Shown piece after piece: positions 1,262 through 55,528 of a DNA stretch of 64,000 nt. The position numbers were made by a program, and so were the translations under genes. The notes under the pieces were generated by a model. It saw only the letters and a program-made list of their open reading frames with translations, made no database searches and was not told the DNA's origin. Source of the DNA: Candidatus Moraniibacteriota bacterium. Its GTDB lineage: Bacteria > Patescibacteriota > Minisyncoccia > Moranbacterales > UBA1568. The stretch spans positions 2,204 through 66,203 of the forward strand of contig JBAQEZ010000001.1 in NCBI GenBank assembly GCA_049287005.1. Direction: 5' to 3'. Every line of letters begins with the position of its first letter. Within the stretch, counting starts at the first letter, position 1.

Positions 1262-2053
1262 CTAGAGTACTTTCAGCTTCTTCTTCTCCTCTTCTTCCCA
1301 TGCGAGTATTTCTCGTACCACTCCTTTGTACGCACGCGCACCCTTGGAAAAGGCATCGAAATCCAGAATAGATTTTCCGAAACTCGGAGCCTCGGCAAGA
1401 CGCACCGAACGCGGTATCACGCTTTCGAACACCGGCCCGGGAAAATGTGTCCGCACCTCGGATACGACTTGCCGCGCCAGACGATTGCGCCGATCATAGA
1501 GTGTCAGTAATGCTCCCATAATTTTCAGATGCGGTTGCAAATTTTCACGTACCAACTCGATCGTACCGAGCAGCTGGCTGAGCCCCTCCAGCGCATAATA
1601 CTCCGTCTGGACGGGGATGACTATCTCGTCAGAAGCGACCAAACCGTTGATCGTGAGCAATCCCAAAGAAGGAGGACTATCGATCAAAATATAATCGTAG
1701 TAGGATCGTATCTGACGCAAAACATTGTACAGACGGAACTCGCGATTCTCGATGTGTACCATCTCGATTTCCGCCCCTGCCAGATCCTGTGCCGACGGGA
1801 TGATGTGCAGGTTTTCCGCGTCTGTCCGCAGAATGATTTCTTGTGGTGGCAGACCGAGGATCATCGCGTGATAGAGATTCTTTTTCAAACTCCGGGCATC
1901 GATACCCAGTCCCGAAGAAGCGTTGCCTTGCGGGTCCAAATCCACCAAGAGCACCTTCTTGCCTGCTTCGGCAAGATAATGGGCAACATTAATCGTCGAA
2001 GTAGTCTTGCCTACCCCGCCCTTCTGATTGACGAATCCGATGATCTTTGCCAT
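1262..2053 (-). CDS. parA: ParA/Soj family partitioning ATPase
   Basis: N-terminal deviant Walker A (KIIGFVNQKGGVGKTTSTINVA); 263 aa. Confidence 0.9.
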   Translation of the reverse strand: MAKIIGFVNQKGGVGKTTSTINVAHYLAEAGKKVLLVDLDPQGNASSGLGIDARSLKKNLYHAMILGLPPQEIILRTDAENLHIIPSAQDLAGAEIEMVHIENREFRLYNVLRQIRSYYDYILIDSPPSLGLLTINGLVASDEIVIPVQTEYYALEGLSQLLGTIELVRENLQPHLKIMGALLTLYDRRNRLARQVVSEVRTHFPGPVFESVIPRSVRLAEAPSFGKSILDFDAFSKGARAYKGVVREILAWEEEEKKKLKVL

Positions 2054-2250
2054 AGATAGCTTGTAACCTGTAGCTTATGAGCCGGTAGACTTAAAGTGAA
2101 GCGCCGACAAGCATTCTTATACTTTCCCTCAGAAGCTAAAAAACTACCGCCTAAGAAGCTTTCGTTATTATAGTCCATTGACAAATGATTATCAATTTTC
2201 TATCCTGCTTCTATGTCTACGGACAGTCTGGGGCTCAACACAAAGGAAAT

Positions 2251-3735: not shown

Positions 3736-3791
3736 AAAATTGAAATAGTATTTTCCTAAAATTCTTGGAAAAATAATGGTTCAAAATAGCC

Positions 3792-4463
3792 TCAAAACAG
3801 CGTTCCGAACGGCTTGATATCGGCCAGCGGCGCGTGCTCTGTTTTGGCTGATTCCAACAGTTTCTTGTTACCGTGTAACTCAGCCAAATACTCCCAATTG
3901 CGGAATTCCGGATATTTTTCCAATTGTTTTTCCAGAATTTCCACTGTGACGCGCACATCTCCCGCTCCCGTATGAGCATTCACATGCTCCTTCCCGCAGT
4001 AGAGTTTGTACGCGGCACCGAGATTACGCGGCGCGAACATATCACGCACTTCCATTTTGTGATAGAGAATTTTCGCATCCAGCACTCTCTTCGATGTAAA
4101 ATCGAAATTTTTCCCCACCGAGGAGAACTCGCCCTTGAGAAACGGCAGATCGAATCCCGTGATATTGAATCCACCGACATCCGCCCCCTCGAACATGCTC
4201 CACAGTTCATACGAGAGTTTGGCGAAACTCGGCGCGTCCGCCACGTCCTTATCATAGATGCCATTGATGCGGCTCGCTACTTCTGGAATCGGTTTCCCGG
4301 GGTTGATCCGCTGGCAATACGCCACGATTTCTCCGCTGGGCATGATTTTCTCGTACGCGATCTCAATGATCTTATCCTCCCCCGCAGCCAGCCCGGTCGT
4401 TTCCAAATCAAAAATAACTAGCGGACGATCAAGTGGTAAATATTGTGCTATAGTGGATCTCAT
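3792..4463 (-). CDS. DEDDh 3'-5' exonuclease (DnaQ / Pol III epsilon-like)
   Basis: VIFDLETTGL Exo I motif; HTGAGDVRVT Exo III-like motif. Confidence 0.75.
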   Translation of the reverse strand: MRSTIAQYLPLDRPLVIFDLETTGLAAGEDKIIEIAYEKIMPSGEIVAYCQRINPGKPIPEVASRINGIYDKDVADAPSFAKLSYELWSMFEGADVGGFNITGFDLPFLKGEFSSVGKNFDFTSKRVLDAKILYHKMEVRDMFAPRNLGAAYKLYCGKEHVNAHTGAGDVRVTVEILEKQLEKYPEFRNWEYLAELHGNKKLLESAKTEHAPLADIKPFGTLF

Positions 4464-28016: not shown

Positions 28017-28418
28017 CTAATGATCCTGGCGGTCGAACACATATACTACGAGACACAACAACAGAATGAATGCCCCCATGATCACTTCCCCTGAACCAGG
28101 GAACTGATACGCCGCGCTCATGAGCTGCGAAAGTCCCACTAAGAGGAATATCACCCCCAAAAAAGCGAAGGAAAAAAGAAATAGCCGGCGTGTCACCTTT
28201 CTGGTGAATACATGCACCGCTTGATGCGCCCGTTCAACCGCTCCGTCGAATGAAGACTGGATACCCTTGACCACGCTCTCCAAAAGGAGTCCCGTCCAAC
28301 CAGTACCCACATTTTCTTTTTTCGTCCGGGTTGTTTTTTTTGTTTCCATATCTTTCTTATTTATATTTATAATTATAGCACGAAAAAAGCAACTTGTAAA
28401 AAATTGCCACGCGTGCAT
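28017..28418 (-). CDS. Phage-holin-family (YqjE/DUF1469-like) membrane protein
   Basis: ~110-130 aa, two TM helices; sits in a pair with the ElaB-like gene as in yqjD-yqjE arrangements. Confidence 0.4.
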   Translation of the reverse strand: MHAWQFFTSCFFRAIIININKKDMETKKTTRTKKENVGTGWTGLLLESVVKGIQSSFDGAVERAHQAVHVFTRKVTRRLFLFSFAFLGVIFLLVGLSQLMSAAYQFPGSGEVIMGAFILLLCLVVYVFDRQDH

Positions 28419-48390: not shown

Positions 48391-49830
48391 TTATTTCAAT
48401 CTTACAAAAAGAGGTTCGGTTTTCCCATCTGCCAGAGCCTGAGAAATCTTGCCTGCGGTCTCTGGAAGGAAAGGGCTCAGAACGAGTCCGATGTAACCCA
48501 CCAATCCGAAAAGGCTCCGCATGATCTCATCAAACTTCCCCGGATTCGTTTTCGCCATTTCCCAAGGCTTGTTTTCATCAATAACCTTGTTGGCTTCTCG
48601 TACTTTCACCCAAATCAATTCCAAGCTATCGGAAAATCTGTACTCATTCAAAGGAGCGAGTTCTTTGGTTTTTAAATGAAGACTCTCATCTTTCGTACTG
48701 ATACCGATGGGTTCCCGAAGCTGCTCTGACAATTTCACAACGCGCGAAACGAGATTCCCAAGGCCATTAGCCAGATCAGCATTATATTTCTCCATGAGAC
48801 GCTCCAGGGTAATATCCGGGTCGTTCTCGAGGTTGCCCGATGAAAGAAGGAGGTACCTCGTGCCATCCTTCCCGAAACGTTCGATCAGCTCATCTGGCGA
48901 AATCCCGTTACCCAGCGACTTCGACATTTTCTGTCCGGCTACGAGGATATGTCCGTGAATAAGAATCTGTTTGGATGGCTCGAGGCCGGCCGAAAAAAGC
49001 ATCGCCTGCCACATGGCCGACTGCTGACGGAGATTGTCCTTGCCGGCGATCTGCAGTCCCGGCCAGAACTTCTTGAAATTCGCTTCATCTTCAGGCCAAT
49101 GCAAAGTAGAAATATAATTCACCAGCGCATCAAACCACACGTACATCACGTGAGTATTATCCCCCGGCACCGGAATTCCCCACGGCATCTTGGCCGCGAG
49201 CCGTGAGATGCTGAAATCCTGCAGTCCGCCTGCGACGAAATTTTTTATCTCCACAAGCCGGTTCGCTGGCACCACAAAATCAGGCCGATCGGCAAAGAGC
49301 CGAAGCAGCGTATCTTGATGCTTCGAAAAGCGGAAAAAATAATTTTCCTCCTCGACAATCTGGATTTCCATGTTCGGATGATCCGGGCACTTGCCGTGGT
49401 CAAGGTCGGAATCTGTTTTTTCCAACTCACAGCCGACACAATATTTCGTCTGATACTCCTTCTTATAAATATCGCCAGCTGCCTCGCAGCGTCGCCAGAA
49501 TTCCTGGGCTGTCTTTTTGTGGTGCTCGTCCGTCGTCCGGACAAAATGCGTATAGCTGATATCCAGCGTCTCTTTGACGGCTCGAAAGTATTCGGACATC
49601 CGGTCGCAGTATTCCTGTGGGGTGACGCCTTCTTCGGCAGCCTTCTGCAGAATCTTCTGCCCGTGCTCATCAGTGCCGGTGTTGAAAATAACCTCATCGC
49701 CCCGGAGACGGGCCATCCGCGCCAGAACATCCGCCTGGACAAACTCCAAAACATGCCCCAGATGCGGCCGGCCGTTGACATACGGCAGGGTGGTAGTGAT
49801 ATAAAATGGCTTGTTTTCAGTACTTTTCAT
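48391..49830 (-). CDS. metG: Methionyl-tRNA synthetase (short form without a C-terminal dimerisation domain)
   Basis: PYVNGRPHLGHVLEF HIGH motif, KMSKS, a CxxC...CxxC knuckle; 479 aa. Confidence 0.95.
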   Translation of the reverse strand: MKSTENKPFYITTTLPYVNGRPHLGHVLEFVQADVLARMARLRGDEVIFNTGTDEHGQKILQKAAEEGVTPQEYCDRMSEYFRAVKETLDISYTHFVRTTDEHHKKTAQEFWRRCEAAGDIYKKEYQTKYCVGCELEKTDSDLDHGKCPDHPNMEIQIVEEENYFFRFSKHQDTLLRLFADRPDFVVPANRLVEIKNFVAGGLQDFSISRLAAKMPWGIPVPGDNTHVMYVWFDALVNYISTLHWPEDEANFKKFWPGLQIAGKDNLRQQSAMWQAMLFSAGLEPSKQILIHGHILVAGQKMSKSLGNGISPDELIERFGKDGTRYLLLSSGNLENDPDITLERLMEKYNADLANGLGNLVSRVVKLSEQLREPIGISTKDESLHLKTKELAPLNEYRFSDSLELIWVKVREANKVIDENKPWEMAKTNPGKFDEIMRSLFGLVGYIGLVLSPFLPETAGKISQALADGKTEPLFVRLK

Positions 49831-49839
49831 AGAATAATA

Positions 49840-49868
49840 TTGACAACATCGAATTTACAGTGTATAAT
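49840..49868 (+). promoter_or_regulatory. Perfect-consensus sigma70 promoter TTGACA-17-TATAAT
   Basis: TTGACA at 49840-49845, a 17-nt spacer, TATAAT at 49863-49868; followed by the hairpin CTGGTTGG...CCAACCAG (49871-49897). Confidence 0.7.
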
Positions 49869-49922
49869 GGCTGGTTGGAAAGTTCGTTACCAACCAGCAA
49901 CCACCAGCGAGGAGATTATAGC

Positions 49923-50126
49923 ATGCAGACACAAACCCTGGAACGGCACGCGCTTGTAGCCTTCGTTTTTCTGGTCGCAATGATTTACACCATTGCCTCG
50001 GCAATCAGTGCCACCGGTGGCGGCGATACCTTCGCCAGCGGTCATTGGGCCAACTGGCTTTTCACGAAGGTTCTCGCGGCACACGATTTTTTTTGGTGCT
50101 GCGTAGCCCCAGGGCTGCCTGGCTAG
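49923..50126 (+). CDS. Small hydrophobic peptide ORF (67 aa), first ORF of the mini-operon
   Basis: AGGAG SD 8 nt upstream of the ATG; predicted TM segment ALVAFVFLVAMIYTIASAI; ends in FFWCCVAPGLPG. Confidence 0.4.
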   Translation: MQTQTLERHALVAFVFLVAMIYTIASAISATGGGDTFASGHWANWLFTKVLAAHDFFWCCVAPGLPG

Positions 50127-50149
50127 ATTCCGCCACAAGGGAGAAAATA

Positions 50150-50305
50150 ATGGGGGAAAATGATCCGTCGGGAGCCGACCCCCGAAAGAAGGCTCGGCAC
50201 AACCAGATCCAGGAAAGCCCGAGGGTCACCATGCATCTCCTCTGGGGGTTTCTTATAGGGTCTGCAGTGGCGGCCGCATTCATAGAATGGGTCACTGCCC
50301 TATAG
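50150..50305 (+). CDS. Small peptide ORF (51 aa) with a C-terminal TM segment, second ORF of the mini-operon
   Basis: AAGGGAG SD 7 nt upstream of the ATG; LLWGFLIGSAVAAAFIEWV TM segment. Confidence 0.35.
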   Translation: MGENDPSGADPRKKARHNQIQESPRVTMHLLWGFLIGSAVAAAFIEWVTAL

Positions 50306-50327
50306 AGTCTCACTATCAACCGATCAA

Positions 50328-50357
50328 CCTGACTTCGCACCACGCGGTCAGGTTTTT
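50328..50357 (+). terminator. Intrinsic terminator closing the small '+'-strand unit
   Basis: CCTGAC...GTCAGG hairpin followed by TTTTTCATTTT. Confidence 0.7.
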
Positions 50358-50373
50358 CATTTTCCTCGATTCA

Positions 50374-50772
50374 TTACACCTCATCTTCATAACGGGCGAT
50401 CTCTTCAGAGAGAGACGGTATGGATGGCAAGGCGGAAAATTCACTCGGGTCAATCCATCGATACTCTGAGTGCTCATGAGAAATGTGCACTTCACCACTC
50501 ACATACTCACACAGAAAAGTAATACCTACCTTGAATTCCCCATTATCTTTTCGGAAGGTGAAGACATGAAACGGTTTTCCGACCGTGACAATCAATCCCG
50601 TTTCTTCCAAGATCTCCCGCTTGAGCGCTTCTTGTGGGTTCTCTTCCTGATCGACACCACCACCTGGCGTTTCCCACACTCCCGGCTTGTGATCATCATG
50701 GTCGCTCCGCTTGAGAACGAGTATTCTTCCGTCCTTGTGAATGATCCCCTTCGCTGCCAAATGAAACTGCAT
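50374..50772 (-). CDS. NUDIX hydrolase
   Basis: Nudix box GGGVDQEENPQEALKREILEETGL. Confidence 0.9.
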   Translation of the reverse strand: MQFHLAAKGIIHKDGRILVLKRSDHDDHKPGVWETPGGGVDQEENPQEALKREILEETGLIVTVGKPFHVFTFRKDNGEFKVGITFLCEYVSGEVHISHEHSEYRWIDPSEFSALPSIPSLSEEIARYEDEV

Positions 50773-53768: not shown

Positions 53769-55160
53769 TTATATGAGTTTTTCTTGAAAATAATGCTTGA
53801 GCTCCTCAATCTTCACCCGCACCTGCTCCATGGTATCGCGGTCGCGAACCGTGACGGCACTGTCCTCGAGAGAATCGAAGTCGACGGTGACACAATACGG
53901 CGTTCCGATTTCATCCTGGCGACGATAGCGCTTACCGACATTCCCATTGTCATCGAACTCAACACGAAAATTTTTCTTCAATTCCATAAATATGCCGCGC
54001 GCTTTCTCCACCAGCTCAGGCTTGTTTTTCATGAGTGGGAACACCGCTATCTGTACCGGTGCCAGTCTCTTCGGGAATTTAAGCACGATACGCAGGTCAT
54101 TTTCCCCGACTGTTTCTTCGGTATAGGCATCCGTCATGACCGCAAGGAAAGTGCGCTCCACACCGACGGATGCTTCCACGATCCACGGAGTGTATTTTTC
54201 TCCCGTCTGCGGATCACGGTAGGAGAGATCCACGCCCGAAAACTTGGTATGCTGCGTCAAATCATAGTCGCTGCGATTGTGTACGCCTTCCAGTTCCTTG
54301 AATCCGAATGGGAAACGGTACTCGATATCCCAAGCCGCCTTCGCGTAAAAAACCAAATTTTCGTGTTGATGCCACCGTAAGTTTTCTTTTTTGATGCCGA
54401 GGTCGACATAATATTGGAAACGCTTCTGCCGCCATTCTTCATAGGCTGCCGCTGCCTCTGTTGGATGCACGAAATACTGCATCTCCATCTGTTCGAATTC
54501 ACGCTTGCGGAAAATGAACTGCCGAGCCGTAATCTCATTGCGGAAAGCCTTGCCAATCTGAGCGATACCGAAGGGTACCTTCACGCGACTCGAGTCCAAC
54601 ACATTTTTGAAGTTGACATAGATCCCCTGGCACGTCTCGCCACGCAAATACGTCGGATTCTCGTTCCAGTCACCCGCGAAATTGCCGAGATTCGACTGTA
54701 CCAAGAGATTGAAATTCTTGGCCTCGGTAAAATCCTTCTTACCGCACTTGGGACAGATAACTTTTTCCCTGTTCTCTGCAAAAAGTGTATTGATTTCTGT
54801 TTCCGTCATTTTTTCGTCGGCAAACACCCCTCTCTCTTCGAGCAAATGATCGACGCGTACTCTCGTGTGGCACTGGCGGCACTCTGCCAGAGGATCAGAA
54901 AACCCTCCCACATGACCCGAGGCTTCCCATACTTTCGGATGCATGAAAATGGCGCTATCGAGGCCGACGATATTGTCGTGATCCCGCACCATAGCCGTCC
55001 ACCACGCCTCACGGATGTTTTTGGCCAGCTCTACCCCATACGGTCCGAAGTCATAGACCGCCGCAAAGCCGCCGTAAATTTCTGACGAAGGGAACACGAA
55101 CCCGCGTCGTTTGCAGAGCGACACTATTTTTTCCATAAGATCATTTTTTTCTTCGGACAT
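53769..55160 (-). CDS. glyQS: Glycyl-tRNA synthetase, alpha2 dimeric type
   Basis: Class II motifs and eukaryote/archaeal-type GlyRS architecture; 463 aa. Confidence 0.93.
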   Translation of the reverse strand: MSEEKNDLMEKIVSLCKRRGFVFPSSEIYGGFAAVYDFGPYGVELAKNIREAWWTAMVRDHDNIVGLDSAIFMHPKVWEASGHVGGFSDPLAECRQCHTRVRVDHLLEERGVFADEKMTETEINTLFAENREKVICPKCGKKDFTEAKNFNLLVQSNLGNFAGDWNENPTYLRGETCQGIYVNFKNVLDSSRVKVPFGIAQIGKAFRNEITARQFIFRKREFEQMEMQYFVHPTEAAAAYEEWRQKRFQYYVDLGIKKENLRWHQHENLVFYAKAAWDIEYRFPFGFKELEGVHNRSDYDLTQHTKFSGVDLSYRDPQTGEKYTPWIVEASVGVERTFLAVMTDAYTEETVGENDLRIVLKFPKRLAPVQIAVFPLMKNKPELVEKARGIFMELKKNFRVEFDDNGNVGKRYRRQDEIGTPYCVTVDFDSLEDSAVTVRDRDTMEQVRVKIEELKHYFQEKLI

Positions 55161-55195: not shown

Positions 55196-55224
55196 TTGAC
55201 AGCGCTTGGTACCCGTAGTATAAC
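55196..55224 (+). promoter_or_regulatory. Near-consensus sigma70 promoter TTGACA-17-TATAAC
   Basis: TTGACA at 55196-55201, a 17-nt spacer, TATAAC at 55219-55224; divergent from glyQS. Confidence 0.6.
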
Positions 55225-55318
55225 TCGAAACAGTACCTTCAACAATCGGAGCGATGAGGGATTATAGCCCCTTTCCGGTTTTTCTTCAACCCGCCGCCTT
55301 ATTGGAGACAAGCATATC

Positions 55319-55462
55319 ATGGAAAGGATCCTCGCATTCGTCGTTGAAAACATCTTCATCGTTGTCATCCCGGCGGCGTTCATCAGCGCCGCTATCGCCC
55401 ACCATTGGCCAGTCATGGGCCACCATCGCCAGCCTTCTCACCGCGATGAGGAAGCCTGCTGA
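55319..55462 (+). CDS. 47-aa hydrophobic peptide ORF (MERILAFVVENIFIVVIPAAFISAAIAHHWPVMGHHRQPSHRDEEAC)
   Basis: Lies between the promoter and the terminator; GGAGA 10 nt upstream; one TM helix plus a His-rich tail. It is below the 60-aa cutoff of the ORF track. Confidence 0.35.
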   Translation: MERILAFVVENIFIVVIPAAFISAAIAHHWPVMGHHRQPSHRDEEAC

Positions 55463-55494
55463 GTCCCTGAAACAGGGAGAAGCTCCCAACCTCC

Positions 55495-55528
55495 GACGCT
55501 GTCACGCCCGACAGCGTCGTCTTTTTTT
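55495..55528 (+). terminator. Intrinsic terminator closing the second small '+'-strand unit
   Basis: GACGCTGTC-ACGCCC-GACAGCGTC perfect 9-bp stem followed by GTCTTTTTTT. Confidence 0.75.

Follow-up and report, generated by a model that had tools for sequence, protein, structure and literature searches.

A metG-divergent locus in a Moraniibacteriota bacterium is probably a small-protein cassette carrying a divergent member of an unnamed CxxGGxC family

Two minus-strand genes, metG and a NUDIX hydrolase gene, leave a gap of 543 bp between them in the Moraniibacteriota DNA analyzed here (the window, 64 kb in its full length), and this gap probably holds a self-contained small-protein cassette with very strong expression signals and not an RNA gene. 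The window matches contig JBAQNY010000013.1 of the metagenome-assembled genome GCA_049304235.1, and this contig is also present in run SRR28062879. A sequence-only reading of this stretch had described a plus-strand unit divergent from metG with its own promoter and terminator, and all of the elements that it described were found in the sequence (Table 1). Judged by its pattern of conservation, the first open reading frame of the unit, ORF1, is a genuine conserved protein-coding gene. The unit had also been called unannotated, which proved true of one ORF and not of the other: ORF1 is already a hypothetical protein in GenBank, and the second frame, ORF2, is uncalled in every assembly.

Table 1. 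Features of the cassette and its surroundings, with the small ORFs of two related loci; coordinates are those of the window except in the last two lines, which give positions in the respective locus
Feature	Position	Strand	Remarks
metG	48391-49830	-	Divergent neighbor of the cassette
Sigma-70-type promoter TTGACA-17-TATAAT	49840-49868	+	Exact, 12/12; -35 box 49840-49845, -10 box 49863-49868
Inverted repeat GCTGGTTGG-N11-CCAACCAGC	49870-49898	+	9-bp stem; dG -14.5, z -4.9
Shine-Dalgarno sequence GAGGAG of ORF1	49909-49914	+	8 nt before the ATG
ORF1, 67 aa	49923-50126	+	Small-protein gene WAV46_00240; divergent member of the unnamed CxxGGxC family
Palindrome GCCACCGGTGGC	50010-50021	+	In-frame codons A30-T31-G32-G33, including the conserved TGG motif
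Shine-Dalgarno-like AAGGGAG	50137-50143	+	6 nt before the ORF2 ATG
Lineage-specific insertion, ~190 nt	50140-50320	+	No counterpart between ORF1 stop and terminator in the nearest cassettes
ORF2, 51 aa	50150-50305	+	Candidate orphan ORF; hydrophilic N-terminus and C-terminal hydrophobic segment
Segment predicted to pair with the ORF1 Shine-Dalgarno sequence and AUG (49900-49930)	50225-50249	+	Not distinguishable from chance
Intrinsic terminator, then TTTTTCATTTT	50326-50362	+	8+3 bp stem with 2-nt bulge; dG -16.4 kcal/mol, z -5.4
NUDIX hydrolase gene	50374-50772	-	Other flank of the cassette
L004 small ORF	1911-2114	-	MxGKNFGxTV...LWxII family, beside metG
L011 small ORF	~3740-3899	-	MxGKNFGxTV...LWxII family, beside metG

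The -35 box of the promoter lies 10 nt from the minus-strand start codon of metG. This promoter had been singled out as perfect and rare, and a window-wide scan bore this out, the exact consensus occurring once in 64 kb. When one mismatch was allowed, five matches were observed against 0.15 expected, which indicates that the organism does use sigma-70-type promoters. The hairpin reported after the promoter is real, but it measures 29 nt and not 27. Because it begins 2 nt past the -10 box, the likely transcription start (about 49874 to 49877) falls inside it, and in an RNA that starts near 49875 only four to five weak pairs of the stem remain. The hairpin is also lineage specific; its CCAACCAGC arm is common only to the related locus L008, and none is found here in the other relatives. 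At the far end, the terminator that had been placed at 50328 to 50357 is strong and extends a few nucleotides further on both sides. It was missed by a simple scanner because of its bulge.

Both ORFs have the lengths originally given and each is led by a Shine-Dalgarno (SD) sequence. The accompanying statement that most housekeeping genes lack one also holds; with starts mechanically assigned, an SD match of at least 4 nt precedes only 4 of the 37 long ORFs in the window, and the other 33 are without. Strong SD sequences precede the small ORFs of the cassettes, in the window and in the relatives alike, with the proviso that the one in L008 depends on the start codon chosen. A literature search on SD use in Patescibacteria found nothing directly useful.

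The metG gene itself has no SD. The best candidate for its promoter, obtained in a looser scan, is GTTCCA-18-TATAAT on the minus strand (9/12, 49944 to 49915), whose -10 hexamer, at 49920 to 49915, falls between the SD and the ATG of ORF1. Transcription from this site would give an antisense overlap of the two transcripts across the 49870 to 49898 hairpin. Weaker minus-strand hexamers resembling a -10 box overlap the plus-strand -10 box in the window and in the related loci L003 and L005.

Among 80 genome loci anchored on metG and 80 metagenome loci, homologous small ORFs occupy this site in L003, L005, L008, L083, and L087. Further family members adjoin metG in L163, L166, L168, and L170/171. 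Homologues are thus present in 9 distinct loci besides the window, in each of them upstream of metG and divergent from it. A profile hidden Markov model for which L003 and L005 were the only source sequences, with the query left out, matched ORF1 with an E value of 3.4e-10 (39.6 bits) among 15,023 six-frame ORFs. Differences among the homologues are most frequent at third codon positions (0.61), followed by first (0.49) and second (0.43) positions, and the closest pair of homologues has a dN of 0.16, a dS of 0.70, and a dN/dS of 0.23, with dS saturated in the other pairs. Together, the codon-position pattern and the dN/dS ratio are the signature of coding sequence and not of RNA. The sequence-only reading had proposed that conservation of the reading frames be weighed against conservation of structure. 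For ORF1 the outcome was clear: the peptide is conserved among relatives while nucleotide similarity is barely detectable, and its reading of ORF1 as a small membrane peptide is upheld. The codon-usage score of ORF1 reaches only about the 5th to 8th percentile of real-gene segments.

A single transmembrane helix had been predicted for each ORF, and each indeed has a hydrophobic segment of transmembrane strength, at residues 10 to 28 in ORF1 (KD 2.49) and at residues 30 to 48 in ORF2 (KD 1.83). An AF2 model of ORF1 made with the family alignment (pLDDT 66) has a helix at residues 3 to 30, a loop, and a second helix at residues 40 to 64; the longer tail with its second helix is common to a subgroup of the family (P0003, P0012, and P0014).

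A profile search of 5.8 billion proteins yielded 25 clusters of this family (P0001 to P0025), 52 to 74 amino acids in length, none of which has a Pfam domain or a name that indicates function; one example is HYV45_01875, a hypothetical protein in GenBank. Searches of Pfam, NCBIfam, and PDB sequences with the family gave no match above threshold, and no member was found in phages among the viral contigs searched. The family is confined to one Moraniibacteriota clade. Its members have a short N-terminus, with an N-region that is net positive in 17 of 23 members, followed by an uncharged, hydrophobic stretch of 17 to 24 amino acids, (L/A)-S-A, and then the consensus D/N/E-C-(A/S)-T-G-G-x-C-T-F-A-(N/S)-G-D-W-F-x-W-I-A-T-T. 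The tail is aromatic and net acidic or neutral in all 23. Such an N-terminus is compatible with a signal anchor of N-in/C-out topology as well as with a Sec signal that is cleaved behind S-A. Valine and isoleucine at the -1 position are disfavored by signal peptidase I. The residue at -1 of the putative cleavage site is alanine in 20 of the 23 members and valine or isoleucine in 3, and the latter argue against universal cleavage. In ORF1 itself, A-S-A precedes I28, the n-region has a net charge of 0, and the uncharged stretch is 19 amino acids, a transmembrane length.

ORF1 matches the family profile and shares with the family the hydrophobic N-terminal stretch, the TGG and FASG motifs, and the aromatic tail, as well as the same metG-divergent site and the same promoter-SD-ORF-terminator layout. 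It differs in the loop, where it reads ISATGGGD in place of the family's DCATGGSC. Indeed, it is the only one of the 23 aligned members without both loop cysteines, having S and D in their positions where the other 22 have C and C. The loss of a near-invariant cysteine pair may point to a different way of working or to decay.

The expression signals around these small ORFs are retained together with their site. A promoter matching 10 to 12 of the 12 consensus positions is kept at the same place in 11 of 11 related loci, 10 of which carry a CxxGGxC gene or a gene of the second family described below, the remaining one being L010. Within the nine other CxxGGxC loci the promoter scores at least 10/12 in all and is exact in six, and a clear SD is present in eight, L008 being the ninth; across all 11 related cassettes, at least 10 have a strong SD. 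An intrinsic terminator follows 43 to 66 nt past the stop codon in seven CxxGGxC loci. The closest relatives of the window by metG, L004 and L011, have the same promoter, SD, and terminator around an unrelated small hydrophobic protein. It belongs to the MxGKNFGxTV...LWxII family, represented by five clusters (P0026-P0029), and in these two loci the terminator lies 28 to 45 nt past the stop. Kinship between the two families was considered and rejected (hhalign probability of 0.75%). A third type, a 59-amino-acid ORF, lies upstream of metG in L010. A divergent promoter of at least 11/12 no more than 200 nt from the metG start was present in only 16 of 165 loci scanned, and 15 of those 16 are the small-ORF cassettes of this clade; the remaining locus, L135, has no SD-led ORF.

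The occurrence of different ORFs at the same site suggests that ORFs have been replaced inside a conserved expression cassette. One could go further and picture the metG side as a slot, a fixed high-expression site with conserved promoter and terminator at which unrelated small hydrophobic ORFs are exchanged within one clade. Its occupants would be the Cys-loop family, the MxGKNFG family, the L010 type, and ORF2, which might serve as abundant exported or surface peptides of an episymbiont, and the ORF2 segment might gate ORF1 through a hok-like fold-back. We regard this extended proposal as speculative and unlikely.

The window also departs from its relatives at the 3' end. The distance from the ORF1 stop to the terminator is 201 nt, an interval that takes in ORF2, compared with 28 to 66 nt in the relatives with a recognizable terminator, and the family trait of a single-ORF unit terminated no more than about 70 nt past the stop is absent here. 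The window terminator aligns with those of L163, L087, and L166, and the shared loop sequence indicates that the terminator is homologous across the clade despite the roughly 190 nt inserted ahead of the window copy. The sequence ...CACGCG... is common to the terminator loops of the window (50336 to 50346), L163 (~1760 to 1772), and L087 (~2575 to 2590), and there is almost no difference between the terminators of L163 and L087. That the insertion might be a repeat or mobile element was considered and rejected, since no further copy of it turned up in the window or among the related loci.

ORF2 may be a genuine second small membrane protein, which would make the cassette bicistronic and would be compatible with the main explanation, or the stretch from 50127 to 50325 may be an untranslated insertion in the 3' untranslated region (UTR). 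We rate the former at somewhat less than an even chance. In its favor, an SD-like sequence lies 6 nt ahead of the ATG in an SD-poor genome, the codon-usage score of its frame is the highest among the six and as good as that of ORF1 (0.017 versus 0.006), and ORF2 has a hydrophobic segment toward its C-terminus. It also fits between ORF1 and the terminator, which begins 20 nt past the ORF2 stop, and the small ORFs found at this site in L004, L011, and L010 have a similar layout, with a hydrophilic N-terminus and a C-terminal transmembrane segment. However, no homologue of ORF2 was found with HMMER among 1.84 billion representative proteins, or with phmmer and tblastn in 162 related loci, or in viral contigs. 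Profile comparison gave hhalign probabilities of only 0.7% against the MxGKNFG family and 0.2% against the CxxGGxC family, BLASTP against the L010 ORF gave an E value of 4.6, no gene caller called ORF2 in either assembly, and the homologous cassettes are all single-ORF units. The second micro-ORF of the sequence-only reading is present with its SD, but it is an orphan that the relatives lack and no more than a candidate coding sequence.

An early tblastn match between ORF2 and the L004 ORF (E value of 0.08) was lost in profile comparison, and kinship of the two was rejected. Closer relatives that would allow covariation or dN/dS analysis of ORF2 were sought, and only identical copies of the locus were found; apart from these, metG identity reached at most 76% in genomes and 72% in metagenomes. 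One of the identical sequences, a Logan assembly (L002), has a 56-amino-acid ORF called opposite ORF2 at 1288 to 1458, equivalent to 50062 to 50232 on the minus strand of the window. The minus-strand frames opposite ORF2 score worse on codon usage than the ORF2 frame.

It had been suggested that the transcript, of about 480 nt, could equally be a new structured RNA, and we considered whether it might be a noncoding RNA or a dual-function small RNA (sRNA) in which the ORFs are incidental. The region does contain many inverted repeats, the whole transcript folds better than shuffled sequences (z -4.0 on the plus strand, -3.1 on the minus strand), and the ORF1 coding region alone folds at z -2.95. 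Nevertheless, a covariance search of the whole window against Rfam gave nothing at gathering thresholds; RNase P, signal recognition particle (SRP) RNA, transfer-messenger RNA (tmRNA), and 6S RNA, which had been named as families to check, were not matched, and relaxing the search to an E value of 10 on 49750 to 50450 returned only a spurious 18.9-bit snoRNA fragment. What the relatives conserve is protein, with a coding pattern of substitution. The 3' 190 nt are absent from them, and the ORF2 stretch folds like its shuffles (z -0.98). The most conspicuous palindrome, which had been offered as a hint of structure, is present and simply spells A-T-G-G codons that include the family's TGG motif, and the 5' hairpin is neither conserved nor wholly within the predicted transcript. 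It is the ORF1 coding region, together with the hairpins at either end, that accounts for the excess of folding. The description of the transcript as GC rich holds only mildly, the GC content of the region being 0.551 versus 0.503 for the window, within the top 9% of 488-nt windows. We therefore consider a structured RNA gene very improbable at this locus; the z scores of the whole transcript and of the ORF1 region leave room for some RNA-level role.

The other suggestion was a toxin of a type I toxin-antitoxin system. For such toxin mRNAs (Hok/Sok, TisB/IstR, and AapA1/IsoA1), the mechanism that lends itself to comparison is hok-type fold-back inhibition. By analogy, ORF1, ORF2, or both would be toxins, a hok-like fold-back would block the full-length mRNA, and an antisense RNA, for example the metG leader, would be the antitoxin. 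Both peptides are short and hydrophobic, as those toxins are, and the predicted ensemble does pair the SD and AUG of ORF1 with 50230 to 50242 (P about 0.99), a 5'-3' pairing over SD and start codon of the kind seen in those systems. However, the duplex energy of -26.5 was equaled by 52 of 1,000 dinucleotide shuffles (p ~0.05) and by one ordinary control gene, and the partner segment is absent downstream in the homologous cassettes, which keep the consensus promoter and the strong SD all the same; the translation signals appear strong and unrepressed in all relatives. As for an antitoxin, the standard scan lists no minus-strand promoter. The 9/12 site at 49944 to 49915 from the looser scan would give a transcript antisense to the ORF1 5' UTR, but it is more likely to be the metG promoter than an antitoxin promoter. 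No toxin family in Pfam or NCBIfam was matched above cutoffs, and ORF1 has no sequence membership in the known type I families. ORF1 is single copy within the window and conserved in its syntenic position beside metG, and purifying selection acts on a tail whose cysteine loop is conserved in the family, a combination met more typically in structural or exported proteins. No antitoxin RNA was identified. On these grounds together, a type I toxin is very unlikely, and the small-protein cassette remains the preferred reading.

Two other kinds of known small protein invite comparison with the cassette. YohP, MgtR, and MmpA, small single-pass membrane proteins in NCBIfam, are likewise 50 to 70 amino acids with one hydrophobic helix encoded in an independent small transcription unit. 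However, the matches to these families were composition driven and below threshold, with E values of 0.01 to 0.08, far below the curated cutoffs, and the families have no counterpart to the putatively extracytoplasmic Cys-loop tail of the CxxGGxC proteins. Class II bacteriocins such as enterocin P are Sec-dependent small disulfide peptides that are cationic. The CxxGGxC proteins resemble them in having a signal-like N-terminus that ends in (L/A)-S-A, a tail of 25 to 40 amino acids, and two cysteines. They differ in the acidic or neutral character of the tail and in the V or I at -1 of three members; moreover, there are no adjacent immunity or export genes, the neighbors of the cassette being metG, the NUDIX gene, and rsmI.

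Other units of similar appearance occur in the window. At 55196 to 55527 on the plus strand there is a second look-alike cassette with TTGACA-17-TATAAC (11/12), GGAG ahead of an ATG at 55319, a 47-amino-acid hydrophobic ORF (MERILAFVVENIFIVV...), and, after it, a T8-run terminator. The glycyl-tRNA synthetase gene (53769 to 55160), on the opposite strand, has this unit on its upstream side, and both window cassettes thus flank an aminoacyl-tRNA synthetase gene. The NCBI record includes the 47-amino-acid ORF among its called genes; Pfam gave no match to it. On the minus strand, a near-consensus promoter (TTTACA-17-TATAAT, 28372 to 28400) is followed by two small ORFs, one starting at about 28349 and the other at about 27990. 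The arrangement reaches downstream to about 27755, and the small ORFs lie in 666 bp that are free of long ORFs.

In the preferred reading of the locus as a small-protein cassette, a housekeeping sigma factor would start transcription near 49875 at the exact consensus promoter, giving a 5' UTR of about 48 nt with a strong SD and a transcript expected to end at the terminator. The N-terminus of the ORF1 product, of a kind that is mostly positive across the family, would stay inside the cell. The hydrophobic stretch of 17 to 24 amino acids would anchor the protein in the membrane or serve as a Sec signal with cleavage after (L/A)-S-A, and the acidic, aromatic tail of 25 to 42 amino acids, which in the family bears the CxxGGxC mini-loop, would face outward. 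The insertion, toward the 3' end of the transcript, holds ORF2, which may be translated or may belong to an untranslated region. The combination of a consensus promoter and an SD, in a genome largely without SDs, suggests that the product is abundant as a protein of the envelope or membrane.

The locus can be taken as settled in favor of a conserved small-protein gene over a new class of RNA, and there is no cause to pursue it as an sRNA; ORF2 is flagged as one uncalled orphan ORF. The cassette defines an uncharacterized small-protein family that is specific to one clade of Patescibacteria. The value of such a family is modest and the finding is a fairly ordinary one. With its unusually strong expression signals, the protein can reasonably be proposed as an abundant peptide, secreted or of the envelope, in a group of organisms about whose surface biology little is known.
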